From the IMG/VR virus record IMGVR_UViG_2734482774_000015: 18,985 bases of DNA; one strand, written 5' to 3'. Origin of the DNA: a virus (lineage: Duplodnaviria; Heunggongvirae; Uroviricota; Caudoviricetes). This document shows, piece by piece, positions 514 through 18,985 of the stretch; position 1 is the first letter of the stretch; every line of letters starts with the position of its first letter. A program made the position numbers and the translations under genes. The notes beneath the pieces were generated by a model. It saw only the letters and a program-made list of their open reading frames with translations. It searched no databases and was not told where the DNA came from.

Positions 514-524
514 ATTCACCCCAC

Positions 525-552
525 AAAAAAGCCCGCCTGAACCGGCGGGCTG
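525..552 (-). terminator. Rho-independent terminator immediately upstream of stf
   Basis: Minus strand reads AGCCCGCCGG-TTCA-GGCGGGCT followed by TTTTTTGTGG: a GC-rich stem-loop plus U-run. Confidence 0.6.
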
Positions 553-573
553 TCATAACACTGTGTTACCTGG

Positions 574-753
574 CTACCAGCCGTCGCTCAGTTTCTGACG
601 AAACGCCGGGAGCTGTGTGGCCAGTGCCCGGATGGCTTCAGCCCCCGTTTTCACACGAAGGTCGATGCGGCGACCAAATCGTTGTAAATCCCCGTAAAGG
701 CAGATGCGCGCCATGCCCGGTGACGCCAGAGGGAGTGTGTGCGTCGCTGCCAT
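574..753 (-). pseudogene. I: Tail assembly protein I remnant: 59 codons, then in-frame TAG
   Basis: Minus-strand ATG at 753 gives MAATHTLPLASPGMARICLYGDLQRFGRRIDLRVKTGAEAIRALATQLPAFRQKLSDGW*, which matches the λ gpI N-terminus as recalled. The full protein is about 223 aa. The stop is followed directly by the pre-stf terminator. Confidence 0.8.
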
Positions 754-1427
754 TTGTCGGTGTACCTCTCTCGTTTGCTCAGTTGTTCAGGAATATGGTG
801 CAGCAGCTCGCCGTCGCCGCAGTAAATTGCGGCGTGATTCGGCACTGATGAACCAAAACAGCACAGCAGCACATCGCCCGGCTGTGCCGCTGACAACGGC
901 ACCTGATACAGCCCCGTCGCCTCCAGATTGCGTTTCACCCACGAAGCATGGCCGCCATTGTCACCAAGAAAATCCCCGCCCTGCGACATAGCGATGGAAA
1001 GAGCAGGTATTGATTCGTAGTACGCCAGCATTTCAGAAAGGATCGCATCCAGTTTCCTTATCGGAAAATAGGCCTGGTCATAGTTGCGATCCACCCGAAA
1101 CTGGAACTCGTGATAATCATCATCGAGCTGAATGAAGTATTTACACCCGACCAGTTTTGCCAGGTCGAAACAGGCATTACGGGCGTAAAAAATTGAGCGG
1201 CGGTCACAGAAATTATCGGCTTCGTCAAAACGACTGGCGATATCGGCTTTGGAAAACACCAGCACCTGTTCACCAAATTCAGCCATGTACTGATGCCGTG
1301 TCTTATCTTCATCATCAACAACGATAAAAATTTTCCCGGTATAGCCAGCACGACGCAACGTCCGGTAAGTCAGAACTTTGTCCGGTCGCCCGTGAGTCAG
1401 AATAAAGGCGCAAAAATCATCACGCAT
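651..1427 (-). CDS. Chimeric ORF: N-terminal GT-A-like (DxD) domain fused in frame to the C-terminal NlpC/P60-like part of λ tail protein K; probable deletion fusion
   Basis: The C-terminal ~90 aa (LEATGLYQVPLSAAQPGDVLLCCFGSSVPNHAAIYCGDGELLHH...AFTGIYNDLVAASTFV) look like the gpK C-terminus and overlap the I start as K does in λ. The N-terminal ~170 aa (FILTHGRPDK...GKIFIVVDDEDKT...IQLDDDYHEF) resemble a family-2 glycosyltransferase pattern. The likely start is the ATG at 1427 (MRDDFCAF), with GAGGAGGAGG 4 nt upstream and an ATGCGTGA overlap with the upstream gene's stop. Confidence 0.55.
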   Translation of the reverse strand: MRDDFCAFILTHGRPDKVLTYRTLRRAGYTGKIFIVVDDEDKTRHQYMAEFGEQVLVFSKADIASRFDEADNFCDRRSIFYARNACFDLAKLVGCKYFIQLDDDYHEFQFRVDRNYDQAYFPIRKLDAILSEMLAYYESIPALSIAMSQGGDFLGDNGGHASWVKRNLEATGLYQVPLSAAQPGDVLLCCFGSSVPNHAAIYCGDGELLHHIPEQLSKRERYTDKWQRRTHSLWRHRAWRASAFTGIYNDLVAASTFV

Positions 1428-2211
1428 ATTCCTCCTCCTCACCACCATGCATGATCTCCACCATGCGCTGCGTCATCCGGACAAATCCATTTTCAATAGC
1501 CTGCTGATAATCAATGATCACCAGCGCCGACTCCTCGAAAAAACACTGAATTTCAGCGGGGGCGTGAGCGTAATAGTCCGCAATTCTGCTGAAATTAAAC
1601 ACCGTGTGACGTTCTGCCGCACACAGGAGGAATTTCTCAATATCAGGCTCAAGGGAAGCCAAACGTATCCGGCTGATCAGCTCCTGCGTTTTCGTATCGT
1701 CGTACAGTTCACTGATATCCGGTTTACCGCCCGACGGCTCATAAACAGGCGTATCAATTTTCGTCGTATACGGCTCCTCCTCATTTCCTGTACCGGGCAA
1801 AACATCCGTCAACAGTTCATCAATTTCTGTCGGGATGAAGCCTGTCAGGGAGACATCAAAATCAGCATTGATTAGGTCCGACAGCTCCATCCGCAACAGA
1901 TCTTCATCCCAGCCAGCATTCATCGGCAGGCGATTATCTGCCAGGCGGTACGCCTTTTTCTGCTCATCCGTCAGGCCAGACAGAACAATGACCGGAACAG
2001 AATCCATTTTGAGCATTTCAGCCGCCATAACACGACCGTGACCCGCAATAATTTCGCCCTTTTCGTCAATCAGCACCGGATTAGTCCAGCCGAATTGCTT
2101 AATACTTTCTACCAGTTGTGCCACCTGCTCAGGGCTGTGCGTCCTGGCGTTGTGCGCATACGGTGACAATTCTTGTAATGGGCGATAGACTATCTTTAAT
2201 TTCTCGCTCAT
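1420..2211 (-). CDS. ParB-like nuclease domain protein (263 aa)
   Basis: The N-terminus (YRPLQELSPYAHNARTHSPEQVAQLVESIKQFGWTNPVLIDEKGEIIAGHGRVMAAEML) has the ParB N-terminal domain pattern including a GxGR arginine motif. AAGGA lies 4 nt upstream of the ATG. It sits in the post-lysis cargo position. Confidence 0.7.
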   Translation of the reverse strand: MSEKLKIVYRPLQELSPYAHNARTHSPEQVAQLVESIKQFGWTNPVLIDEKGEIIAGHGRVMAAEMLKMDSVPVIVLSGLTDEQKKAYRLADNRLPMNAGWDEDLLRMELSDLINADFDVSLTGFIPTEIDELLTDVLPGTGNEEEPYTTKIDTPVYEPSGGKPDISELYDDTKTQELISRIRLASLEPDIEKFLLCAAERHTVFNFSRIADYYAHAPAEIQCFFEESALVIIDYQQAIENGFVRMTQRMVEIMHGGEEEEYA

Positions 2212-2348
2212 ACATCCTTGCTTTATGAATAAAACGCACCCCAGCAGCCAGTGCTACTGGGGGCGGAGGTGTTGCTGGTAAAGTTAGGTATTGGATCAAT
2301 GAGTGAGTCAACATAATATTAAACTCACAATTATAAATCAGCCATATA

Positions 2349-3806
2349 TTAGGAGCGCCAAAAAAAACCTGAAAACAAAATAATAACAGGATAAATTTCA
2401 AGGCGACCAAGAATCATAGCTATGCACATTAAATATTTTGCAATGTCATTAAGCACTCCGAATGACGATGCAGTAGCCCCAAAACCTAATCCCATATTAT
2501 TAATACATGCAGCCACTGTTGCAAATGATGTAAGAAAATCATATCCCATACCATTTAACACCAGTATAAAAAACACCGTGAAGAGAGTATAAAGAAAAAA
2601 GAAACTCCATACAGACCTCATTACACGATCTGTAACTATCTTCCCTCCTACATTTACACTCAACAACGCTCTGGGATGAGAAAGCTGATTTATCTCGTGT
2701 TTGCTTTGTTTGAAAAGTATAAGAAATCGAAGTGACTTAATTCCACCACAAGTTGAACCTATACATCCCCCAAAGAAACTTGACAACAGCAAAAACACTA
2801 TCGTGTGCGTGGGCCAGCTTGCATAATCCTGCATAGCTAAACCATTATCAGTGAGCATGGAGCTGGCAAGAAAAAACGAATGAATAAAACTTCCATGCAA
2901 GTCATACATACCTATATGCCAGACCTGGAAAGAGGTAACAATGATCACCCCTAAGGCTATTAACAGAAAGAAACGAAGTTCAATATCTCTGATTAAAGGT
3001 TTTATCGTTTTCCTGCTAATAACAATATACCAAAGAGTGAAGTTGAAAGCCGATAGCAGGGAAAAAGAACCAGCCACCAGCTCAACCAAATAGTTATTAA
3101 AATATCCGATACTCTCGCTATGAGTTGAGAAACCACCAAGCGAAACTGTGGAAATCCCGTGACAAATAGCATCAAACAAAGGCATTCCTGCAAGTCTATA
3201 ACAGACAATACAAGCAATACCTAATAAAGAATAAGTTATCCACAGTGTCCGTGACGTATCGGCCAGGCGGGGAGTGAGTTTGTCATCCTTAAATGGCCCC
3301 GGCATTTCTGACTGATAAAGCTTTGCACCACCAATACCCAATAATGGCAATACAGCAACCGCCAGAACAATAACTCCTAAACCACCTATAAAATTTAACT
3401 GTGACCGATAGTACAAATATGCCCGAGGTAATGAACTAACATCATCAATTACAGTTGCTCCTGTTGTTGTTATTCCAGAAACCCCTTCAAACAGAGCATC
3501 AATGAACGTTAAATTAAGTTCTGAGTCAATCCATAAAGGGAATGCACTAATAACAGAAAACAAAATCCAAAACATTACAATTATAATAAACCCATCACGG
3601 GTACGTAATTGAATGCCAGATTTCTTAGTTGTATACCACGCTCCGCCACCAATGCAAAAAAATATAACGAAAGTTATAAAGAAAACGAACAGGCTTTTTT
3701 CTTTATAAAACAATGCTACAACCATTGGTGGCAACATTGAAAGACTATAGAGCCAAACCAGGAACCCACACATATGAGTAACAACTCTTACATGAGATGT
3801 ATTCAT
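2349..3806 (-). CDS. trkG: TrkH/TrkG-family K+ uptake transporter (485 aa)
   Basis: Multi-pass hydrophobic protein with repeated pore-like GxGG segments, recognised as E. coli TrkG (Rac prophage cargo). The region is visibly AT-rich compared with flanking phage genes. The track ORF starts 18 nt upstream at a TTG; the ATG giving MNTSHVRV is preferred. Confidence 0.88.
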   Translation of the reverse strand: MNTSHVRVVTHMCGFLVWLYSLSMLPPMVVALFYKEKSLFVFFITFVIFFCIGGGAWYTTKKSGIQLRTRDGFIIIVMFWILFSVISAFPLWIDSELNLTFIDALFEGVSGITTTGATVIDDVSSLPRAYLYYRSQLNFIGGLGVIVLAVAVLPLLGIGGAKLYQSEMPGPFKDDKLTPRLADTSRTLWITYSLLGIACIVCYRLAGMPLFDAICHGISTVSLGGFSTHSESIGYFNNYLVELVAGSFSLLSAFNFTLWYIVISRKTIKPLIRDIELRFFLLIALGVIIVTSFQVWHIGMYDLHGSFIHSFFLASSMLTDNGLAMQDYASWPTHTIVFLLLSSFFGGCIGSTCGGIKSLRFLILFKQSKHEINQLSHPRALLSVNVGGKIVTDRVMRSVWSFFFLYTLFTVFFILVLNGMGYDFLTSFATVAACINNMGLGFGATASSFGVLNDIAKYLMCIAMILGRLEIYPVIILFSGFFWRS

Positions 3807-3943
3807 ATCTAAATATTCTTTCAATTATAACCACCTTGCTGCAATATTATGATTATACTGTATAAAATTTAACTCCTCTTAGATCTTACTTCACTGTTCC
3901 TTATGAAACAATCATCAAAATGAATCATATTGTAGTTAAGATT

Positions 3944-4408
3944 TTACTTTAAACACTGTTCGGTTATGTATTGCTGAGCACCTTCAAGTTGGGCCTGCAT
4001 CATTACCAGTCGTTCCCGGAGGGTGAAATAATCCCGTTCAGCGGTGTCTGCCAGTCGGGGGGAGGCTGCATTATCCACGCCGGAGGCGGTGGTGGCTTCA
4101 CGCACTGACTGACAGACTGCTTTGATGTGCAACCGACGACGACCAGCGGCAACATCATCACGCAGAGCATCATTTTCAGCTTTCGCATCAGCTAACTCCT
4201 TCGTGTATTTTGCATCGAGCGCAGCAACATCACGCTGACGCATCTGCATGTCAGTAATTGCCGCGTTCGCCAGCTTCAGTTCTCTGGCATTTTTGTCGCG
4301 CTGGGCTTTGTAGGTAATGGCGTTATCACGGTAATGATTAACAGCCCATGACAGGCAGACGATGATGCAGATAACCAGAGCGGAGATAATCGCGGTTACT
4401 CTGTTCAT
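3944..4408 (-). CDS. rzpD: Rz-type i-spanin (154 aa)
   Basis: N-terminal TM segment ([20 protein letters not shown]) followed by a coiled-coil-like charged region. Its start overlaps the endolysin stop (ATGA). Matches DLP12 RzpD as recalled. Confidence 0.85.
4003..4188 (-). CDS. rzoD: Rz1-type o-spanin lipoprotein, embedded in the +1 frame of Rz (61 aa)
   Basis: Lipobox LVVVGC followed by a proline-rich segment ([15 protein letters not shown]), entirely inside the Rz gene. Confidence 0.85.
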
Positions 4409-4902
4409 TGCTGACCCCACAAACAGATTTCACGCTCAATCTCACGACGAGTCATGAGACCTTTCCATTGCTTACCGCCAGCATATGTCCAGCGACGTAG
4501 CTGATCACATGCGCCTTTGATATCGCCCTGGTTTATTTTGCGAAGAAGCGTCGATGTTCTGAAATTGCCAGCACCCACGTTGTAAACGAATGAGTAAAGA
4601 GCGCCGCGCATTGTTTCCGGTATATCGACTTTGATGTACGGGTTAATTTGTCTGGCGACCGTGGCAAGGTCTTTATTCAGGAGGGCTTTGCATTCTGCTT
4701 TGGTATACGTTTTACCGGGAATGATGTCTTTTCCTGTATGCCCGTGACATACAGTCCATACACCAACAATATCTTTGTATGGTATGTAGCTGACACCTTC
4801 CAGACCATCGTTACCACTTGGGCCAGTAATTAACACTGATGCTATAGCAATTGCTCCGCCACCAATAGCAGCAGCAACGGCTTTTCGTAATGATGGAGGC
4901 AT
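4405..4902 (-). CDS. rrrD: SAR endolysin, T4-lysozyme family (165 aa)
   Basis: N-terminal Gly/Ala-rich weakly hydrophobic signal-anchor-release segment ([20 protein letters not shown]) followed by a lysozyme-like body. Matches DLP12 RrrD / phage 21 R as recalled. Confidence 0.9.
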
Positions 4903-5117: not shown

Positions 5118-5704
5118 AACCCCACCTCGCAGACAAAGCGGGTGTAAATTGAGGGAATACAACGTATCGCAAAAAAGCAGAAACGTAACAGACTCGGAGT
5201 CAGTGAATAACTCAGGTATTGGGTTATCAGCTAATATCGAGACTCAAAAAATGGAAAAACCTGCTCGACGGCGGGTTTAAGCTGTGTGACGAAGTAACCA
5301 CTCTTAACAGCATAACCAATTTTTTACGTACGTAAACCACTAAATGATATTTGCGAGAATGCTACCGAGTATTGAAAACACCACTACAAATACATAAGCA
5401 AATCTCAACAAATAACCAACAAATAATTTCCAGCGTTATTTTTAGCTGGTTTAAATTGAACCTTCAAATTATAGAGCACTTATAAATAACAGCCATTAAT
5501 ATAAATTGGCTAATAGATTTATTTTTATTCAGCCAAGAGCCATGAATAGGATTCGATAGAAAAAGTTCAGATAAAAATAGAGATCTACTTCACAAATCAA
5601 ATGAGAAACCAAAACTTACATCTTGAAATAATCACATTGATTAGATGAATATTTATCGCGCAGTGACATCATTTTTTAATAATAGTTCAAAAAAAGGGCT
5701 CACG

Positions 5705-6787
5705 ATGAAAAAATTAACAGTGGCAATTTCTGCTGTAGCTGCATCAGTACTGATGGCGATGTCTGCTCAGGCAGCTGAAATTTATAATAAAGACAGTAAC
5801 AAGCTGGATCTGTACGGGAAAGTTAATGCTAAGCACTACTTCTCCTCTAATGATGCAGATGATGGTGATACTACTTATGCCCGTCTTGGCTTCAAAGGTG
5901 AAACCCAAATCAACGATCAACTGACTGGTTTCGGTCAGTGGGAATATGAATTCAAAGGCAACCGCGCTGAATCTCAAGGTTCCTCCAAAGATAAAACCCG
6001 TCTTGCCTTCGCTGGCCTGAAATTCGGTGACTACGGCTCCATCGATTATGGCCGTAACTACGGTGTAGCATACGATATTGGTGCATGGACCGACGTTCTG
6101 CCAGAATTCGGTGGCGATACCTGGACCCAAACAGATGTATTCATGACTGGTCGCACCACAGGTGTTGCAACTTATCGTAACAATGACTTCTTTGGTCTGG
6201 TTGATGGTCTGAACTTTGCTGCTCAGTATCAGGGTAAAAATGACCGCACTGACGTAACTGAAGCTAATGGTGATGGTTTCGGTTTCTCCACTACTTATGA
6301 GTATGAAGGATTCGGTGTAGGTGCAACCTATGCTAAATCTGACCGCACTAATAATCAGGTTATCTACGGTAACAACAGCCTGAATGCATCTGGTCAAAAT
6401 GCTGAAGTATGGGCAGCTGGTCTGAAATATGATGCGAACAACATCTATCTGGCTACCACCTATTCTGAAACCCAGAACATGACTGTTTTTGGTAATAACC
6501 ATATTGCCAACAAAGCACAAAACTTCGAAGTAGTTGCACAATATCAGTTCGACTTCGGTCTGCGTCCGTCCGTTGCTTACCTGCAATCTAAAGGAAAAGA
6601 CTTGGGTGCGTGGGGTGATCAGGACCTGGTTGAATATATTGATGTAGGTGCAACCTATTACTTCAACAAAAATATGTCCACTTTTGTTGATTACAAAATC
6701 AACCTGATTGATAAGAGCGATTTCACGAAAGCATCTGGCGTTGCTACCGATGATATCGTTGCTGTAGGTATGGTTTACCAGTTCTAA
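5705..6787 (+). CDS. nmpC: Outer-membrane general porin, OmpC/OmpF/NmpC family (360 aa incl. signal peptide)
   Basis: Signal peptide [23 protein letters not shown], Tyr/Gly-rich beta-barrel repeats and C-terminal ...VYQF. It is convergent with Q and antisense to the late operon, as in DLP12. The track ORF starts 60 nt upstream; the ATG at 5705 is preferred. Confidence 0.85.
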
Positions 6788-10752: not shown

Positions 10753-11678
10753 AAATCCACCCCATAAATCCAGTCAGTGTTTGTCAGGTCGAGTTTTGAT
10801 TTTCCGGCTGTCACGCCAGCCTGTTGCTTGTTACGGTTGATTTCGAGTTGGGTCCACTTGTCGCGGAGTTTGGCCGGACATAGCACGTTACCGGACCAGA
10901 AGTTGTCCTGGCATGCCCAGCGGAACAGCACGCACATGTCGCGGTGGTTACGTCCGTCACGTTCACGCATCAGGCGGATATCGTTAGCCCACCCTGCAAA
11001 ATTCGGTTTTCTGGCTGATGGCGCGATGGTCTTCACCATGTCAAACATCCACTCTGCGGCGGTCAGGTCTTCTGCTGTCCCCCACTTGCTGCCGCTCTGA
11101 ATTGCAGCATCCGGTTTCACCACAGGAAGATCGTTTTCTGGCTGGTCAGAGGATTCGTCAGAATTCTCGGACGAAAAAGGTTTTATATTGTCTTTTGTTA
11201 GTTTGTCTTTTGTGTTTACCTGATTCGGGTAAACGCCTTTACCTGATTTGGGTAAACTTTTCTTACCTGATTCAGGTAAATTTACCTCTTTCAGGTAAAC
11301 TTTATTTTTCTTACCTGATTCGGGTAATGTTGACCATTCACTGACCACATTATTAATGCCGGTATTCCGCCCGCTCTGAATAAGAATCCCACGCTTTACC
11401 AGAACACTTTTTGCAGCAGAACACTTGTGCGGCAATATCCCGGTCAATTCGGACAGTTGCTCGTTGCTCACCCAATCCAGTTTTTTATTAAAGCCATATG
11501 TTTTGCGCATGACAGCTAGGAAGACCAGAAGCTGGTGCTGTGTTAATCCGGCCAGCATCACAGCTTCCAGCAACTCATTTGCAATGCGCGTATAACCATC
11601 ATCGAGATCTGCCACGCGCGGCTCCTTTTGTGCCGCATCCGGCACTGGAAAATTGAATATCTCAGCAGTGTTTGCCAT
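10749..11678 (-). CDS. O: Replication initiator O-like protein (about 309 aa); origin iterons lie inside the gene
   Basis: N-terminal domain ADLDDGYTRIANELLEAVMLAGLTQHQLLVFLAVMRKTYGFNKKLD... resembles the λ O DNA-binding domain. The repeated LPESGKK peptides reflect the iterons. ATG at 11678 is preceded by GGGAGG. The track ORF starts 30 codons upstream at 11768, which remains an alternative start. Confidence 0.85.
   Translation of the reverse strand: MANTAEIFNFPVPDAAQKEPRVADLDDGYTRIANELLEAVMLAGLTQHQLLVFLAVMRKTYGFNKKLDWVSNEQLSELTGILPHKCSAAKSVLVKRGILIQSGRNTGINNVVSEWSTLPESGKKNKVYLKEVNLPESGKKSLPKSGKGVYPNQVNTKDKLTKDNIKPFSSENSDESSDQPENDLPVVKPDAAIQSGSKWGTAEDLTAAEWMFDMVKTIAPSARKPNFAGWANDIRLMRERDGRNHRDMCVLFRWACQDNFWSGNVLCPAKLRDKWTQLEINRNKQQAGVTAGKSKLDLTNTDWIYGVDL
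11215..11328. repeat. Replication origin: five about 19-bp iterons (consensus TTACCTGATTCGGGTAAAC, each an inverted repeat TTACC..GGTAA) next to an AT-rich tract (about 11175..11214)
   Basis: Direct repeats at about 11215-11234, 11238-11257, 11263-11280, 11281-11300 and 11311-11328, inside the O-like coding sequence, with the AT-rich stretch AAAAAGGTTTTATATTGTCTTTTGTTAGTTTGTCTTTTGTGTTT alongside, as in oriλ. Confidence 0.8.
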
Positions 11679-11764
11679 AATTCCTCCCGCAATGAGTGTG
11701 TTACGATTTGCACCTGAAAGTCGGTTCTGTTCCAGCAGACCGGCTTTCGCCATTTCTGAACCTG

Positions 11765-12304
11765 TCATATCGCCCCCAGCATGGTAGTAACCATCGCCAT
11801 CAATGGACCAGCCAGATCTGGGTCCACACGAAACATCGACACAATACCTTCACTAATTTCCTTCAGTTTCTGGTGGCGTGGTGCGTTGAGAATGACAGCC
11901 TGTTTTGCCTCACTGAGTTCCTTTTCCATTTCAGCCAACCTAGCCATGAAGCTATCCTGCTCAACCAGGTAACCGCGATATTCCAGCGGTAGTACCGCCA
12001 GAATTGCCGGGGTCAGTTCACGCACGTTATTTCGGTATTTTTCAGAATCGAATTTGTTATCGAGGAAGCGGAACAGCTTCTGGCGTGCACGGCTGACATC
12101 ATCAGGGAAATCGATGGTGCCGCCGCCCTGCTCCCGATACTCATTCACAATGAGTGTGGCAACGACATCCTGATTATCTTCAGCCGACCAAGCGCGGACG
12201 GCATCACGGATTTTTTCGTGGCCTGGCACCTGTTTTGTTTGAGAACGATTTATCACCGCAGTCGGGCTAAATCCGCTAGTCTGTTGGTATGTAAGTGGTT
12301 GCAT
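11765..12304 (-). CDS. YdaT-like protein in the cII position (179 aa)
   Basis: ATG preceded by AAAGGAG. Located directly downstream of the cro-like gene. Weak recalled resemblance to the Rac YdaT family (IRDAVRAW..., ARQKLFRFLDNK...). Function not established here. Confidence 0.5.
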   Translation of the reverse strand: MQPLTYQQTSGFSPTAVINRSQTKQVPGHEKIRDAVRAWSAEDNQDVVATLIVNEYREQGGGTIDFPDDVSRARQKLFRFLDNKFDSEKYRNNVRELTPAILAVLPLEYRGYLVEQDSFMARLAEMEKELSEAKQAVILNAPRHQKLKEISEGIVSMFRVDPDLAGPLMAMVTTMLGAI

Positions 12305-12373
12305 AATTGACTCCTTTAGTTTGAATTGACTGTTAAGTTGATTGCTTATTGTTAAAGAGCGTGAAATGGAAAT

Positions 12374-12604
12374 TTAAGCTGCGTTCTTTTCGGTGTGTGG
12401 AAACAACTTCGGAAGATCCGGGCGAATCTGGTATGCCTTCACTACTCCACCAGTAGCCGTAACAATGCTGCCGACATGTTCAGGGGATACCTTTGCTTTG
12501 TTGTGAAGCCACTTATAGACGGCCTGCTGTGAAACTTCGCAAGCAGCGCCCAGTTTCTTTTGTGAACCAACGATATTGATCGCTGTTTTGATAGCTGGGT
12601 TCAT
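12374..12604 (-). CDS. cro: Cro-like HTH regulator, YdaS-like (76 aa)
   Basis: Divergent from cI across a 104-bp operator region. Putative HTH (QKKLGAACEVSQQAVYKWLHN). GGAGG lies 5 nt upstream of the ATG. Confidence 0.75.
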   Translation of the reverse strand: MNPAIKTAINIVGSQKKLGAACEVSQQAVYKWLHNKAKVSPEHVGSIVTATGGVVKAYQIRPDLPKLFPHTEKNAA

Positions 12605-12708
12605 AACAACCTCCGTGGTTAATTTGAATCAAGATTAAAACTATGGTTGTTTTTAGTCAACAACCATTTTCGTTTGATGGAATAAAACCTTGGTTGTACA
12701 TTTGGACT
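12605..12708. promoter_or_regulatory. oR-like divergent control region: pR for cro (minus strand, -35 TTGACT, -10 TAATCT) and a likely leaderless pRM-type start for cI
   Basis: Minus strand reads TTGTTGACTAAAAACAACCATAGTTTTAATCT, then GGAGG and the cro ATG. Dyad elements ATGGTTGT...ACAACCAT and TTAATTTGAATCAAGATTAA are present. The cI ATG at 12709 has no recognisable Shine-Dalgarno, as for λ cI. Confidence 0.65.
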
Positions 12709-13398
12709 ATGAAAACAACACTCTCAGAAAGACTTAAAGAAGCCAGATTAGCGCGAGGCCTTACACAAAAGGCGCTTGGGGATTTGGTCGGGGTTAGCCA
12801 AGCTGCTATTCAGAAAATCGAAACAGGGAAAGCTAATCAAACAACTAAAATCGTGGAGATCGCGAACGCTTTGGGTGTGCGCGCAGAATGGTTATCTTCT
12901 GGCGTTGGAAATATGTCAGACAGTACAGTGCAACCAATACAATCAACTGTCAGCCATTCCAAATACTTCAAGATTGACGTTCTTGATATAGAAGTCAGTG
13001 CTGGGCCGGGAGTCATCAACCGTGAGTTTGTAGAAGTTCTACGCTCGGTTGAGTACTCGTTTGACGATGCTCGTCACATGTTCGATGGTAGGAAGGCGGA
13101 AAATATCCGCATCATTAACGTGCGTGGTGACAGCATGTCAGGAACGATCGAACCAGGTGATCTGCTGTTCGTTGATATCACAGTTAAATCTTTCGACGGT
13201 GATGGTATCTATGCGTTTCTGTACGACGACACAGCCCATGTAAAGCGCCTGCAAATGATGAAGGATAAGCTGCTGGTCATCTCTGATAACAAAAGCTACT
13301 CACCGTGGGACCCGATCGAGAAAGACGAGATGAACCGGGTGTTCATCTTCGGTAAGGTTATTGGGAGCATGCCGCAGACATATAGGAAGCATGGTTAA
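12709..13398 (+). CDS. cI: CI-type prophage repressor with LexA-like S24 autopeptidase domain (229 aa)
   Basis: N-terminal HTH (LTQKALGDLVGVSQAAIQKIETGK), candidate Ala-Gly cleavage site (EVSAGPG), catalytic Ser in RGDSMSGTIEPGDLLFVD and Lys in HVKRL. The upstream ATG at 12643 would place coding sequence over the operators and is rejected. Confidence 0.9.
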   Translation: MKTTLSERLKEARLARGLTQKALGDLVGVSQAAIQKIETGKANQTTKIVEIANALGVRAEWLSSGVGNMSDSTVQPIQSTVSHSKYFKIDVLDIEVSAGPGVINREFVEVLRSVEYSFDDARHMFDGRKAENIRIINVRGDSMSGTIEPGDLLFVDITVKSFDGDGIYAFLYDDTAHVKRLQMMKDKLLVISDNKSYSPWDPIEKDEMNRVFIFGKVIGSMPQTYRKHG

Positions 13399-13520
13399 AG
13401 TGAGGCTAAAAAACAGTTACAGCAATAGGCCTGTTGTTTTTCTTTAAACACGCAGTGTTAAACCGCTCTTTGAGATGCGGAGTAATGAGATGGAAGACTT
13501 GAATCACATAAGGGTTAGTG

Positions 13521-14270
13521 ATGGAGTGCGTAGCGAGCAGCAATAGTGCAATACCTAATGTCGTTGAAGTAATACGTCGCATCAATGAAGGTTCCACTCA
13601 GCCATTTCTTTGCAAATGTGATGATGGGCAGTTGTATGTTTTGAAGTCAAAACCATCAATGCCCCCGAAAAATCTCTTAGCTGAGTTCATTTCGGCGTGT
13701 TTGGCTAATGATATCGGCCTTCCTTTACCTGACTTTAAAATCGTATTTGTGCCAGAGGAACTTATAGAGTACTCACCTGATCTGCAGCAACAAATTTGTA
13801 CAGGATATGCCTTTGCTTCATTGTTCATTGACGGTGCAATAGCGTTAACGTTTACGCAGTCAAGAAACGAAACGATCATCCCAGTCGAACAGCAAAAATT
13901 AATCTATGTTTTTGATAAATGGATATTAAATGCAGACAGAACGCTTACTGACAAAGGTGGAAACGTTAACATCATTTATGACATCAGTAACGATAAGTAT
14001 TATCTGATTGACCATAATCTCTCATTTGATCAGAATGCTGGACCTGAAGATTTTTCTGTGCACGTGTACGGCCCTGGTAACCGCAAATGGCAATATGATT
14101 TAGTGGATCGCGTAGAGTACCGCCAGAGGGTCGTTAACAGTTTACACAAGCTTCCTGCTATCCTTGACGAAATTCCAGAAGAGTGGATAGTAGATGAGGA
14201 GTTTTTACCTTTTGTCTGCACTACGCTAGACAAAGGTGATTGTGATGAATTTTGGAGCGCAATAGAATGA
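13521..14270 (+). CDS. Uncharacterised protein with HipA-like / kinase-like catalytic motifs (249 aa); first gene of the cassette occupying the rexA slot
   Basis: Intact ORF 120 bp downstream of cI on the same strand. Motifs FDKWILNADRTLTDKGGN and IIYDIS resemble the HipA_C catalytic and Mg-binding Asp loops. AAGGG lies 7 nt upstream of the ATG; an alternative GTG start lies at 13518. The family assignment is inference from motifs only. Confidence 0.65.
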   Translation: MECVASSNSAIPNVVEVIRRINEGSTQPFLCKCDDGQLYVLKSKPSMPPKNLLAEFISACLANDIGLPLPDFKIVFVPEELIEYSPDLQQQICTGYAFASLFIDGAIALTFTQSRNETIIPVEQQKLIYVFDKWILNADRTLTDKGGNVNIIYDISNDKYYLIDHNLSFDQNAGPEDFSVHVYGPGNRKWQYDLVDRVEYRQRVVNSLHKLPAILDEIPEEWIVDEEFLPFVCTTLDKGDCDEFWSAIE

Positions 14271-15094
14271 CAACTCCATGCCTATATAGCATCGTTCGCT
14301 ATGCGCCTTATGCGGAGACTGAAGAGTTCGCAAACATAGGCGTACTTCTGTGCGCGCCAAAAGAAAATTACTTTGATTTCCAGCTCACAAAGCGAAATGA
14401 CTCTCGTGTAAAGAATTTTTTCCATGATGATTGTATTTTCCCTGTAGCAAAAGACTCAATACAAAGAGAACTACAGTTCGCAAAAATGCATGCGACCCAG
14501 ATTGTTGGACATCAACAACTTGCACAATTCTTCAGATATTTTACAAACAAAAAAGAATCAATTTTTCAGTTCAGTTCTACGAGAGTGATTCTCAGCGAAA
14601 ACCCAAAAGAAGAGCTGGCCCGCATTTACAATAAATATGTAAACCACTCTGACTACACAAAAGAGCGCCGTGAAGATGTTCTAGCCAGAGAGCTAAAACG
14701 AAGTATCGATAGAATAGATGGATTGAAGAACGTCTTCAAACAAGCAACCATTGATGGGTATTTCGCAAAGTTCTCAATGCCATTGGTCGCCAAGAAGCAT
14801 GACAGGATCCAATGTGCCATCAAACCTCTGGCATTCACTCAAGCTGAACCAGGAAAAATGATGGAGCATAGTGATACTTGGGTGATGAGAATAACTCGAG
14901 CAGCAGAAGAAAACCTGCTTTCACTTGATGACATTTTATTCACAATTGAAACTCCTGAATCACCAAACTCAGGCCAAAGCAAAGTTATTGACATCATAAA
15001 GAGAACTATGGATGCTAAGAAAATAAATCATATACCTGCATCCAACCACAAAGAAACTATTGATTTTGCAAAAAAAATACTTCCCCAAGTTTAA
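14267..15094 (+). CDS. Uncharacterised protein with DUF3037-like N-terminus (275 aa); second gene of the cassette, translationally coupled to the first
   Basis: The ATG overlaps the upstream stop (ATGA); GGAG lies 9 nt upstream. The N-terminus CLYSIVRYAPYAETEEFANIGVLLCAP matches my recollection of the DUF3037 signature. Followed by a strong terminator. Confidence 0.65.
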   Translation: MTTPCLYSIVRYAPYAETEEFANIGVLLCAPKENYFDFQLTKRNDSRVKNFFHDDCIFPVAKDSIQRELQFAKMHATQIVGHQQLAQFFRYFTNKKESIFQFSSTRVILSENPKEELARIYNKYVNHSDYTKERREDVLARELKRSIDRIDGLKNVFKQATIDGYFAKFSMPLVAKKHDRIQCAIKPLAFTQAEPGKMMEHSDTWVMRITRAAEENLLSLDDILFTIETPESPNSGQSKVIDIIKRTMDAKKINHIPASNHKETIDFAKKILPQV

Positions 15095-16300: not shown

Positions 16301-16519
16301 ATGTACTTGACACTTCAGGAGTGGAACGCTCGCCAGCGACGCCCAAGAAGCCTTGAAACAGTTCGTCGATGGGTGCGCGAATGCAGGATATTCCCTCCTC
16401 CGGTTAAGGATGGAAGAGAATATCTGTTCCACGAATCAGCGGTAAAGGTTGACTTAAATCGACCAGTAACAGGTAGCCTTTTGAAGAGGATCAGAAATGG
16501 GAAGAAGGCGAAGTCATGA
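16301..16519 (+). CDS. xis: Excisionase Xis (72 aa)
   Basis: MYLTLQEWNARQRRPRSLETVRRWVRECRIFPPPVKDGREYLFHESAVKVDLNRPVTGSLLKRIRNGKKAKS, recognised as λ Xis. The 3' end overlaps int by 23 nt, as in λ. Confidence 0.95.
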   Translation: MYLTLQEWNARQRRPRSLETVRRWVRECRIFPPPVKDGREYLFHESAVKVDLNRPVTGSLLKRIRNGKKAKS

Positions 16520-17567
16520 GCGCCGGGATTTACCCCCTAACCTTTATATAAGAAACAATGGATATTACTGCTACAGGGACCCAAGGACGGGTAAAGAGTT
16601 TGGATTAGGCAGAGACAGGCGAATCGCAATCACTGAAGCCATACAGGCCAACATTGAGTTATTTTCAGGACACAAACACAAGCCTCTGACAGCGAGAATC
16701 AACAGTGATAATTCCGTTACGTTACATTCATGGCTTGATCGCTACGAAAAAATCCTGGCCAGCAGAGGAATCAAGCAGAAGACACTCATAAATTACATGA
16801 GCAAAATTAAAGCAATAAGGAGGGGGCTGCCTGATGCTCCACTTGAAGACATCACCACAAAAGAAATTGCGGCAATGCTCAATGGATACATAGACGAGGG
16901 CAAGGCGGCGTCAGCCAACTTAATCAGATCAACACTGAGCGATGCATTCCGAGAGGCAATAGCTGAAGGCCATATAACAACAAACCCTGTCGCTGCCACT
17001 CGCGCAGCAAAATCAGAGGTAAGGAGATCAAGACTTACGGCTGACGAATACCTGAAAATTTATCAAGCAGCAGAATCATCACCATGTTGGCTCAGACTTG
17101 CAATGGAACTGGCTGTTGTTACCGGGCAACGAGTTGGTGATTTATGCGAAATGAAGTGGTCTGATATCGTAGATGGATATCTTTATGTCGAGCAAAGCAA
17201 AACAGGCGTAAAAATTGCCATCCCAACAACATTGCATGTTGATGCTCTCGGGATATCAATGAAGGAAACACTTGATAAATGCAAAGAGATTCTTGGCGGA
17301 GAAACCATAATTGCATCTACTCGTCGTGAACCGCTTTCATCCGGCACAGTATCAAGGTATTTTATGCGCGCACGAAAAGCATCAGGTCTTTCCTTCGAAG
17401 GGGATCCGCCTACCTTTCACGAGTTGCGCAGTTTGTCTGCAAGACTCTATGAGAAGCAGATAAGCGATAAGTTTGCTCAACATCTTCTCGGGCATAAGTC
17501 GGACACCATGGCATCACAGTATCGTGATGACAGAGGCAGGGAGTGGGACAAAATTGAAATCAAATAA
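16497..17567 (+). CDS. int: Tyrosine integrase Int (356 aa)
   Basis: Full-length, recognised as λ Int with only a few substitutions (MGRRRSHERRDLPPNLYIRNNGYYCYRDPRTGKEF...HELRSLSARLYEKQ...HLLGHKSDTMASQYRDDRGREWDKIEIK). Confidence 0.97.
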   Translation: MGRRRSHERRDLPPNLYIRNNGYYCYRDPRTGKEFGLGRDRRIAITEAIQANIELFSGHKHKPLTARINSDNSVTLHSWLDRYEKILASRGIKQKTLINYMSKIKAIRRGLPDAPLEDITTKEIAAMLNGYIDEGKAASANLIRSTLSDAFREAIAEGHITTNPVAATRAAKSEVRRSRLTADEYLKIYQAAESSPCWLRLAMELAVVTGQRVGDLCEMKWSDIVDGYLYVEQSKTGVKIAIPTTLHVDALGISMKETLDKCKEILGGETIIASTRREPLSSGTVSRYFMRARKASGLSFEGDPPTFHELRSLSARLYEKQISDKFAQHLLGHKSDTMASQYRDDRGREWDKIEIK

Positions 17568-17701: not shown

Positions 17702-18985
17702 GTGAATACATTTTCAGTTTCCCGTCTGGCGCTGGCATTGGCTTTTGGCGTGACGCTGACCGCCTGTAGCTCAACCCCGCCCGATCAACGTCCTTCTGAT
17801 CAAACCGCGCCTGGTACCTCTTCTCGCCCGATTCTGTCGGCAAAAGAAGCGCAGAATTTCGATGCTCAACACTATTTTGCATCCCTGACACCAGGTGCTG
17901 CAGCGTGGAATCCTTCCCCGATTACCCTGCCTGCGCAACCTGACTTTGTTGTCGGCCCGGCGGGCACTCAAGGTGTAACGCATACCACGATTCAGGCGGC
18001 GGTAGATGCGGCAATTATCAAGCGTACCAACAAGCGCCAGTATATTGCCGTGATGCCTGGTGAGTATCAGGGAACGGTATATGTCCCTGCCGCTCCGGGT
18101 GGAATTACTCTGTACGGTACAGGTGAAAAACCGATTGATGTGAAGATTGGGCTTTCCCTTGATGGTGGCATGAGCCCTGCCGACTGGCGTCACGACGTCA
18201 ACCCGCGCGGCAAATATATGCCAGGTAAACCAGCGTGGTATATGTACGATAGCTGCCAGAGCAAACGCAGCGACAGTATCGGTGTTCTCTGCTCTGCGGT
18301 CTTCTGGTCACAAAACAATGGCCTGCAACTGCAAAATCTGACCATCGAAAACACGCTGGGCGATAGCGTAGATGCAGGTAACCATCCGGCGGTGGCACTG
18401 CGTACTGATGGTGACCAGGTACAGATTAACAACGTTAACATTCTCGGTCGTCAGAACACCTTCTTTGTCACCAACAGCGGTGTGCAGAACCGTCTGGAAA
18501 CGAATCGTCAGCCGCGTACGCTGGTGACCAACAGCTACATTGAAGGGGATGTGGATATCGTTTCTGGTCGCGGCGCAGTGGTGTTCGATAACACCGAATT
18601 CCGCGTGGTGAACTCACGTACTCAGCAAGAAGCGTATGTGTTTGCACCGGCTACGCTGTCCAACATTTACTACGGTTTCCTCGCCGTAAACAGCCGTTTC
18701 AATGCTTTCGGTGATGGTGTGGCGCAACTGGGCCGCTCGCTGGATGTTGATGCCAATACCAACGGTCAGGTGGTGATCCGTGATAGCGCCATCAACGAAG
18801 GTTTTAACACGGCTAAACCGTGGGCCGATGCGGTGATCTCTAATCGTCCGTTTGCGGGTAATACCGGCAGCGTAGATGATAACGACGAAATACAGCGCAA
18901 TCTGAATGACACTAACTACAACCGCATGTGGGAATACAATAACCGCGGCGTGGGCAGCAAAGTGGTTGCAGAGGCGAAGAAGTAA
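17702..18985 (+). CDS. ybhC: Host outer-membrane lipoprotein YbhC, pectinesterase-like acyl-CoA thioesterase family (427 aa), GTG start
   Basis: Lipoprotein signal with lipobox LTAC and pectinesterase-like repeats. Recognised as E. coli YbhC, the gene flanking attλ on the gal side. Confidence 0.9.
   Translation: MNTFSVSRLALALAFGVTLTACSSTPPDQRPSDQTAPGTSSRPILSAKEAQNFDAQHYFASLTPGAAAWNPSPITLPAQPDFVVGPAGTQGVTHTTIQAAVDAAIIKRTNKRQYIAVMPGEYQGTVYVPAAPGGITLYGTGEKPIDVKIGLSLDGGMSPADWRHDVNPRGKYMPGKPAWYMYDSCQSKRSDSIGVLCSAVFWSQNNGLQLQNLTIENTLGDSVDAGNHPAVALRTDGDQVQINNVNILGRQNTFFVTNSGVQNRLETNRQPRTLVTNSYIEGDVDIVSGRGAVVFDNTEFRVVNSRTQQEAYVFAPATLSNIYYGFLAVNSRFNAFGDGVAQLGRSLDVDANTNGQVVIRDSAINEGFNTAKPWADAVISNRPFAGNTGSVDDNDEIQRNLNDTNYNRMWEYNNRGVGSKVVAEAKK

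Follow-up and report, generated by a model that had tools for sequence, protein, structure and literature searches.

An in-frame glycosyltransferase–gpK fusion left by a prophage deletion, and the conserved ParB-like/glycosyltransferase cassette from which it came

We analysed an 18,985-nucleotide stretch of viral DNA (IMG/VR record IMGVR_UViG_2734482774_000015), referred to throughout as the window, which is a nearly whole defective lambdoid prophage. In it, a gene for a ParB-like protein (the partner) overlaps a chimeric open reading frame (ORF) that begins as a glycosyltransferase of the TET-associated glycosyltransferase (TAGT) family and ends as the tail tip assembly protein K. The chimera was made in frame by a single illegitimate-recombination deletion with 2 nt of microhomology. 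Judged from gene order in other viruses and genomes, the undeleted pair is an obligate, translationally coupled cassette that heads the packaging or late operon, and we propose that it would glycosylate phage DNA after replication and just before packaging. For this explanation as a whole, comprising deletion scar, obligate cassette and putative DNA glycosylation, we estimate a probability of roughly 0.75; for the glycosylation of DNA taken by itself, the odds seem about even. The features on which the argument rests all belong to genes on the minus strand (window ORF list):

574-753, minus strand: N-terminal 59 codons of tail assembly gene I (ORF; divergence from gene I of the Rac-type phage vB_EcoS-666R9, our locus L003)
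651-929, minus strand: last 92 codons (residues 156-247) and stop of tail tip assembly gene K, in frame (phrog_30, NLPC_P60, DNA homology to L003 K)
928-929, minus strand: deletion junction, a 2-nt 'AA' common to the glycosyltransferase gene and K (three-way DNA comparison of the window, the L003 glycosyltransferase gene and L003 K)
930-1427, minus strand: codons 1-166 of the TAGT-family GT-A glycosyltransferase (PF20691; identity to the intact gene)
1420-1427, minus strand: stop/start overlap ATGCGTGA (sequence)
1420-2211, minus strand: ParB-like partner gene, 263 aa, full-length ynaK, intact (ORF, PF02195, phrog_620, AlphaFold2 (AF2) model and Foldseek)
1423-1794, minus strand: C-terminal domain (CTD) of the partner, aa 140-263 (cross-phage alignment)

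The ParB-like ORF ends ...GAA TAT GCG TGA. The octamer at 1427-1420 contains the glycosyltransferase ATG, and its last three bases are the ParB stop (1422-1420). A sequence resembling a Shine-Dalgarno site, GAGGAGGAGGAA at 1440-1429, lies ahead of the ATG at 1427-1425. The second ORF is mechanically listed as 651-1448, but homologues begin at ATG 1427-1425, so that the real ORF is 651-1427 and its protein 258 aa long. An identical 8-nt overlap is found in vB_EcoS-666R9. A first-pass annotation, made from the window's letters alone, had reported this minus-strand overlap and the motifs FILTHGRP, IFIVVDDEDKT and DDDY, and we recovered its coordinates and all three motifs at the positions or in the translation it gave.

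The chimera opens with the N-terminal half of a GT-A glycosyltransferase of the TAGT family (residues 1-166). Pfam PF20691 (TAGT) matched residues 15-175 with E=1.5e-24 and 87.6 bits against a cut-off of 27.5, and the PHROGs glucosyltransferase family phrog_842 matched residues 8-174 of the listed ORF (E=2.7e-55). The PF20691 match spans only profile positions 4-151 of 205, and the catalytic domain is thus incomplete. Through R166 the sequence is identical to an intact 310-aa gene of Escherichia coli strain 135 and phage vB_EcoS-666R9, recorded as 'GREB1-related protein' (WP_001204031.1) with PF20691 among its precomputed domains. An AF2 model of the intact protein had a predicted local distance difference test score (pLDDT) of 74.9, rising above 90 for the first ~150 residues. 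Foldseek matched this model to K4CP chondroitin polymerase, SpsA, glycogenin and the S-glycosyltransferase SunS (E=6e-6 to 1e-3) and to the S-glycosyltransferase ThuS in the PDB, all of them GT-A enzymes, and to phage TAGT-domain proteins in BFVD (TM 0.7-0.84); no relative in the PDB was found at the sequence level. The first-pass annotation had called the first ~170 aa glycosyltransferase-like from short motifs, and the profile and structure matches agree with it on the GT-A kind; the family it suggested, PF00535 (GT2), gives way to PF20691.

The remainder of the chimera, residues 167-258, is the last 92 residues of K. The lambda-K-type minor tail protein family phrog_30 matched residues 173-265 of the listed ORF (E=4.5e-54), and NLPC_P60 matched residues 178-242 over profile positions 41-105 of 105 only, its C-terminal two thirds. 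Together with the DNA homology to L003 K, these matches bear out the earlier assignment of the last ~90 aa to gpK. The contrary case it had raised, an ordinary intact phage gene with a tail that resembles K by coincidence, was not borne out: the intact ancestor is the 310-aa gene, and the K sequence is real.

Both halves have lost what an enzyme would need. The glycosyltransferase part keeps R14 and DDD102-104, the nucleotide-sugar-binding half, while the conserved elements KRKAMN, INEDVN, GGMTELY, GTYVKSFY and RIHH lie beyond R166 in the alignment and are lost. The invariant residues K167, M169, D189, G222, T224, Y227 and H260/H261 are all past the breakpoint. The GT-A active-site pattern R...DDD...ED(Y/F) (bioRxiv 10.1101/2023.12.21.572611) is accordingly incomplete in the window ORF, E188/D189 (of INEDVN) and H260/H261 being absent. 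On the K side, residues 1-155 are missing, and with them the part that would match NlpC/P60 profile positions 1-40. Because neither half has its catalytic motifs, the 258-aa ORF is best read as a pseudogene scar and not as a new enzyme.

The deletion was defined by comparison with vB_EcoS-666R9, where the order is lysis genes, trkG, ParB-like gene, glycosyltransferase, a small ORF, terminase small and large subunits, portal, head and tail genes, H, M, L, K and I. An intact glycosyltransferase followed by terminase genes occurs both in strain 135 and in this near-complete Rac-type phage. Compared base by base, the breakpoint falls after glycosyltransferase codon 166 (...GTGAAACGCAA) and before K codon 156 (AATCTGGAGG...), and the 'AA' at window 928-929 is the only sequence common to the two genes there. 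Relative to vB_EcoS-666R9, the window lacks L003 22187-38274, which is 16,088 bp; this base-level figure supersedes an earlier one of 16,102 bp from k-mer anchors. Everything from glycosyltransferase codon 167 to K codon 155 is gone, including the terminase, head and most tail genes. The first-pass annotation had offered two alternatives, a deletion that fused an accessory gene to K or a stable accessory pair whose second member was truncated, and both are true, as the L003 comparison and the pair counts given below demonstrate. It had also proposed looking in related prophages for an unfused second gene and for the exact K junction; the former is the 310-aa gene, and the latter is now mapped to the base.

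Decay did not stop there. A second deletion cut gene I after codon 59 (the sequence diverges from L003 after ...GACGGCTGGTA) and joined it to the region upstream of stf, removing J and lom, so that the start of the side-tail-fibre gene now lies 3' of the gene I remnant. This second junction is near 575 (window 520-620), next to a terminator-like hairpin at 551-530. Seven assemblies with the glycosyltransferase–K junction were examined, and none differs from the others in its ParB-like ORF; the I–stf junction is present in four (L092, L095-L097) and not in L002, L093 or L094. The other assemblies with the first junction keep J and stf remnants. Since the glycosyltransferase–K junction is in 7/7 and the I–stf junction in 4/7, the former is the older: the deletions are nested, and decay continued after the first. 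No complete E. coli genome in the collection has both window junctions together; draft assemblies have them. Within the window, only the orphaned partner gene could still be expressed, and the system itself is, on this evidence, probably dead.

The identical 258-aa fusion protein is on record in at least 59 E. coli assembly blocks, and this persistence, with the preserved reading frame, the retained Shine-Dalgarno sequence and the retained translational coupling, is what could speak for a functional new protein under selection, for example a UDP-sugar-binding module on a tail-tip fragment. We find this scarcely credible. One in three random deletions is in frame, catalytic residues are missing from both halves, and the K partners L, M, H and J are gone. 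The carriers are near-identical, so their shared fusion reflects recent common descent, and the prophage around it is still decaying by further deletions.

Apart from these assemblies, our hit lists contain many single-member E. coli clusters in which a glycosyltransferase or ParB-like front is fused to varied tail, Lom, tail-fibre or terminase fragments; these are either recurrent independent deletions or, for some, assembly chimeras. The TAGT of Lactobacillus phage phiLdb is apparently encoded in two pieces, BFVD proteins of 168 aa and 120 aa, and by tblastn only residues 4-134 are matched; this looks like another independently decayed copy.

Outside the window, the pair is intact and widespread. 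A tblastn search of phage genomes with the glycosyltransferase fragment found the same pair in Haloarcula virus HHTV-2, Lactobacillus phages phi jlb1 and c5, Nocardia phage NTR1 and a Porphyromonas phage. A ParB-like ORF lies directly upstream of the glycosyltransferase in 88/89 loci (80 IMG/VR loci plus the phage loci). Among 32 viral loci non-redundant at 85% identity, the partner stop and glycosyltransferase start overlap by 4-20 nt in 30, with 14 overlaps of 8 nt and 12 of 11 nt. Downstream, the terminase large subunit is the first large ORF in 26 of 27 loci, from at least four Pfam terminase families, and the genes upstream are lysis, Q antiterminator or replication genes. In 80 species-representative genomes, a sample independent of the viral set, a CTD-bearing ORF precedes the glycosyltransferase at every evaluable locus (77/77). 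These genomes include Enterobacterales, Bacteroidales, Clostridia, Veillonella, Saccharibacteria, Chlorobi, Desulfovibrionaceae, Acidobacteriota, Planctomycetota and Verrucomicrobia. Exceptions to the pairing are explained: in Vibrio pv27 the partner consists of the CTD only.

Some versions of the cassette are elaborated. A second TAGT paralogue lies between partner and glycosyltransferase in L146 (2160-3011), L160 (2153-3004), L162 (641-1489) and L170 (2178-3011), a class-I methyltransferase-like gene lies between partner and TAGT in L150 (2159-2995), and in the viral locus L089 (5001-6719) the TAGT is fused to an S-adenosylmethionine (SAM) methyltransferase domain, with the partner 3 kb upstream. 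This suggests that some versions may build a disaccharide or a methylated product.

In Lactobacillus phage c5 (L090, 1-1713) an annotated cos site at 1-11 is followed by the partner at 90-863 and the TAGT at 835-1713; with cos immediately upstream, the cassette is the first thing after the genome end, ahead of the terminase genes. In phi jlb1 (L091) the 1.4 kb directly 5' of the partner (11350-12746) has no ORF of more than 73 codons and may hold a packaging site or an RNA gene.

The partner protein has a ParB/Srx N-domain (aa 1-135), an acidic linker of low model confidence (aa 136-165) and a conserved C-terminal domain. Pfam ParB_N (PF02195), the profile the first-pass annotation had named, scored 28.9 bits against a cut-off of 26.3, phrog_620 (ParB-like) covers aa 1-250 (E=6.5e-90), and the AF2 model matched ParB, Noc, KorB and PadC in Foldseek at probability 1.00, with a root-mean-square deviation of 3.4 Å over 141 columns for Noc. 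Box II of the N-domain reads GHGR (G57-R60), aligned to GERR of Noc; the last Arg is invariant, whereas the Glu and the first Arg are replaced. Binding of a nucleoside triphosphate (NTP) by this domain is plausible. Its closest profile relatives (aa 3-141) are the N-domains of ParB-DNA methyltransferase fusions (phrog_498, 1.2e-50; PADLOC MTase_II, 2.6e-38). The domain is, by profile and predicted structure, a ParB/Srx NTP-binding fold. The protein had been labelled a ParB-like nuclease, and of that label the ParB likeness stands; searches of Pfam, PHROGs and TIGR00180 gave no indication of a nuclease domain, and the word 'nuclease' appears to be historical and unsupported.

Identity as a partition ParB (ParABS) was considered and rejected: the Pfam scan found no helix-turn-helix (HTH) domain, no parA gene is annotated in the Rac-type genome of vB_EcoS-666R9, and the TIGR00180 partition-protein model reached 38.5 bits, well under its cut-off of 58.45, over residues 11-94 only. 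The exact partner sequence is present on 749 contigs. In near-identical E. coli loci, RefSeq/PGAP gives ynaK as an 86-codon pseudogene 'missing C-terminus' (L001 6190-6981, L002 6190-6981). A C-terminally truncated pseudogene was rejected here, the ORF being intact; the call looks like an annotation artefact, and our guess is that it stems from a truncated K-12 reference. For the second gene, equation with the K-12 'ydaY' was dropped because the vB_EcoS-666R9 annotation puts YdaY in the tail-chaperone region. A literature search for ynaK and ydaY found nothing functional.

The best conserved part of the partner, more so than the ParB domain, is the CTD of ~110 aa (alignment of E. coli, halovirus, Lactobacillus, Nocardia, Porphyromonas and Vibrio phages). 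Its motif is YTxKIxxPxYEP...AAERHTVFNF..IADYYAHA..SALVIIDY..AIENG, where the parts after YTxKIxxPxYEP are carried by helices and Y148, P155 and Y157 are invariant. Residues 136-155 have pLDDT <50 and are probably disordered. No Pfam family matched the CTD. An exhaustive phmmer search, clustered at 50%, gave 1,183 representatives, of which 996 had E-values under 1e-10, and in nearly all the CTD forms the C-terminal end of a 240-330-aa protein. It also stands alone: it is the whole ORF upstream of the glycosyltransferase in Vibrio pv27 and Vibrio jumbo phages, and CTD-only partners of ~130 aa occur in at least eight genome loci. By this comparison, the constant element of the partner is the CTD, the ParB N-domain being sometimes missing.

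The TAGT family was reportedly defined by Iyer et al. in 2013, who are also said to have noted its ParB associations. Our proposal is that the late-expressed cassette would modify replicated phage DNA by glycosylation shortly before packaging. The CTD would tether or activate the TAGT enzyme, the ParB/Srx N-domain, where present, would supply NTP-dependent loading onto DNA, and the acceptor would be something other than phage-made 5-hydroxymethylcytosine (hmC) or 5-hydroxymethyluracil (hmU). DNA is the suggested target because of the TAGT membership, the GT-A fold and the kinship of the N-domain to ParB-methyltransferase fusions; because the viruses that carry the cassette infect Archaea, Firmicutes, Actinobacteria, Bacteroidota and Proteobacteria, which have no common envelope glycan; and because the tandem-TAGT variants and those with a fused or adjacent methyltransferase resemble known hypermodification clusters.

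Several published observations point the same way. One TAGT member is the T2/T6 enzyme, which puts a second glucose on glucosyl-hmC; a 2026 study found 'solitary' TAGT homologues in 288 of 753 glycosyltransferase-encoding phage genomes and describes what they do as undefined (PMC13216743). Sugars are transferred to 5hmC by phage GT-A enzymes that accompany TET-like dioxygenases, and database mining in the same work found GT-A genes beside ParB-like and terminase genes (bioRxiv 10.1101/2023.12.21.572611). A phage thymine dioxygenase needs a ParB-like protein as activator to work on double-stranded DNA, in a report that cites Iyer et al. 2013 for ParB directing modification enzymes (PMC13229309). 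A survey of ParB-CTPases does not mention glycosyltransferases (PMC12704722). The first-pass annotation had seen in the ancestor a possible DNA-modification or defence module: modification fits the TAGT family and the ParB-activator literature, while the defence part falls away, no PADLOC defence model matching the glycosyltransferase.

Other observations weigh against a DNA target. No thymidylate-synthase-like hydroxymethylase or TET/JBP dioxygenase is annotated in the three complete carriers (vB_EcoS-666R9, c5 and phi jlb1), and no hypothetical ORF in them is long enough to be one, so that the usual hydroxyl acceptor of DNA glycosyltransferases is missing. TET/JBP and ThyA-type genes were likewise absent from the 25 commonest flanking-ORF families, which are what this screen covered. 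With GHGR at Box II, canonical CTP hydrolysis by the partner N-domain is doubtful. The case for DNA in this ParB/CTD-associated clade is argued by comparison with relatives, one of which, the eukaryotic GREB1, glycosylates protein (PMC7968844).

The leading rival starts from this last point: the cassette would glycosylate a protein, either the partner itself, on the invariant Tyr/Thr of YTxKIxxPxYEP in the manner of glycogenin or the glycocins, or a packaging or capsid protein; on this reading, too, the window copy is dead. GREB1 transfers O-GlcNAc to protein, the PDB fold neighbours include glycogenin and the peptide S-glycosyltransferases SunS and ThuS, and the motif with Y148, P155 and Y157 lies in a stretch predicted to be disordered. 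The lack of a hydroxymethyl-pyrimidine pathway in the carriers and the constant position beside terminase would suit a protein target as well. We nevertheless judge it unlikely. Such fold matches are generic for GT-A enzymes, a conserved linear motif could equally be a docking peptide, the closest relatives of the N-domain are fused to DNA methyltransferases, and DNA is the substrate of those phage members of the family that have been characterised (PMC13216743; bioRxiv 10.1101/2023.12.21.572611).

If DNA is the substrate, the missing pathway leads to a more specific and tentative possibility, that the cassette glycosylates DNA without a hydroxymethyl-pyrimidine precursor, the sugar going, at packaging and under a ParB-type NTP switch, to a canonical base, to a modification made by the host or to the end of the DNA. 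If true, the temperate phages of E. coli, of gut Bacteroidales and Clostridia, of lactobacilli and of haloarchaea that carry it would have a new DNA-modification chemistry.

Very unlikely, in our view, is a role in lysogenic conversion or envelope glycosylation (of O-antigen or teichoic acid), or a ParB-like protein that serves partition or as a nuclease and has nothing to do with the glycosyltransferase. Prophage GT-A enzymes such as TarP do modify wall polymers (cited in bioRxiv 10.1101/2023.12.21.572611), and the pair adjoins the moron trkG. But the same cassette is found in haloarchaeal, Gram-positive, Bacteroidota and proteobacterial viruses, and it lies in the late operon beside terminase and is not a lysogen-expressed moron. 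As for an unrelated ParB, the stop/start overlap couples the two genes, and no parA, HTH or ParA-binding region was found.

The surroundings of the pair in the window are those of a lambdoid prophage. Lysozyme, Rz/Rz1 and trkG match the annotation of a 99.8%-identical E. coli locus, and elsewhere the window encodes the replication proteins O and P, a cI-type repressor, a YdaT-like protein and an integrase, besides a porin moron and, in the flank, a ybhC-like gene. The features concerned are:

2239-2262, minus strand: terminator-like hairpin between trkG and the ParB-like gene (sequence)
2349-3824, minus strand: trkG, a moron for a potassium transporter, with the lysis cassette 5' and the ParB-like gene 3' of it (ORF and annotation of near-identical loci)
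3944-4420, minus strand: Rz, with Rz1 (lysis cassette)
4405-4902, minus strand: lysozyme (ORF list and annotation of a near-identical locus)
5645-6787, plus strand: porin gene lying between the lysis cassette and the Q antiterminator region but on the other strand (Porin_1, E=4e-153)
13518-14270 and 14252-15094, plus strand: HipA_2-like kinase gene overlapping a DUF3037 gene (PADLOC)
16497-17567 and 17702-18985: lambda-type integrase with arm-binding domain and adjoining pectinesterase-like gene (sequence)

The porin gene at 5645-6787 is an nmpC/ompC-like moron. The HipA_2-like/DUF3037 pair lies directly 3' of the cI-type repressor gene (12643-13398) and matches the PADLOC candidate defence system PDC-M66 (A 8e-15, B 4e-16). 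In lambda, rexAB has the position next to the repressor gene. The pair is probably a lysogen-expressed defence or toxin pair. At the integrase end, the pectinesterase-like gene (17702-18985) is taken to be ybhC; at the opposite end of the prophage, as seen in related assemblies, the neighbours are a GGDEF gene, a gene of the PBP family (likely ybhB) and one for an aminotransferase (likely bioA). With the integrase and the ybhC-like gene on one side and the likely ybhB and bioA genes at the other end, the prophage appears to sit at att-lambda despite its Rac-type trkG and ynaK.

The fusion itself is ordinary prophage decay, and its main practical value is as an annotation warning: in RefSeq the scar goes under 'NlpC/P60 family protein' or 'GREB1-related protein'. 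The ancestral cassette is of a known but uncharacterised kind, the 'solitary TAGT' group, and what distinguishes it is the strict pairing with an unnamed domain and the lack of a hydroxymethyl-pyrimidine pathway. Its organisation is almost invariant across bacterial and archaeal viruses, and its carriers include small temperate phages of E. coli and Lactobacillus that lend themselves to genetics. The cassette could reveal a new glycosylation of DNA or of protein, and show whether the ParB-activator principle, so far that of one dioxygenase, extends to glycosyltransferases.

Three known systems and one known protein bear comparison. To lambda gpK, with its MPN and NlpC/P60 domains, the chimera is related only as a remnant: its last 92 residues are K, while residues 1-155 are missing, and it is not a K protein. 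The characterised TAGT enzymes (the T2/T6 beta-glucosyl-HMC-alpha-glucosyltransferase and the 5mYOX-associated phage GT-A enzymes) are alike in the PF20691 match, the GT-A fold and being phage-encoded, and their R...DDD...ED pattern is present in the intact relative of the window gene; more remotely related are GREB1 and the trypanosome base-J glucosyltransferase. A tblastn search with the glycosyltransferase fragment at E<=1e-5 did not bring up T-even phages. Unlike the known TAGT systems, this clade is 'solitary', with no alpha- or beta-glucosyltransferase, TET/5mYOX or hydroxymethylase in the annotated carriers, and it is always paired with a CTD-bearing partner; the window copy, in addition, ends at residue 166. 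The prophage fusions of a ParB N-domain to a DNA methyltransferase (phrog_498; PADLOC MTase_II; PMC12704722) match in the N-domain, but here that domain is carried on a ~110-aa adaptor-like domain and the enzyme is separate and translationally coupled. The 5mYOX176/ParB176 pair (PMC13229309) can be likened to the cassette by architecture: both partners have a ParB NTP-binding N-domain, a short helical segment, a disordered linker of ~30-50 aa and a helical CTD, without an HTH, and in both the ParB-like gene adjoins that of a DNA-modification-type enzyme. The enzyme is a dioxygenase there and a glycosyltransferase here, and by analogy with ParB176 the partner may be its activator.

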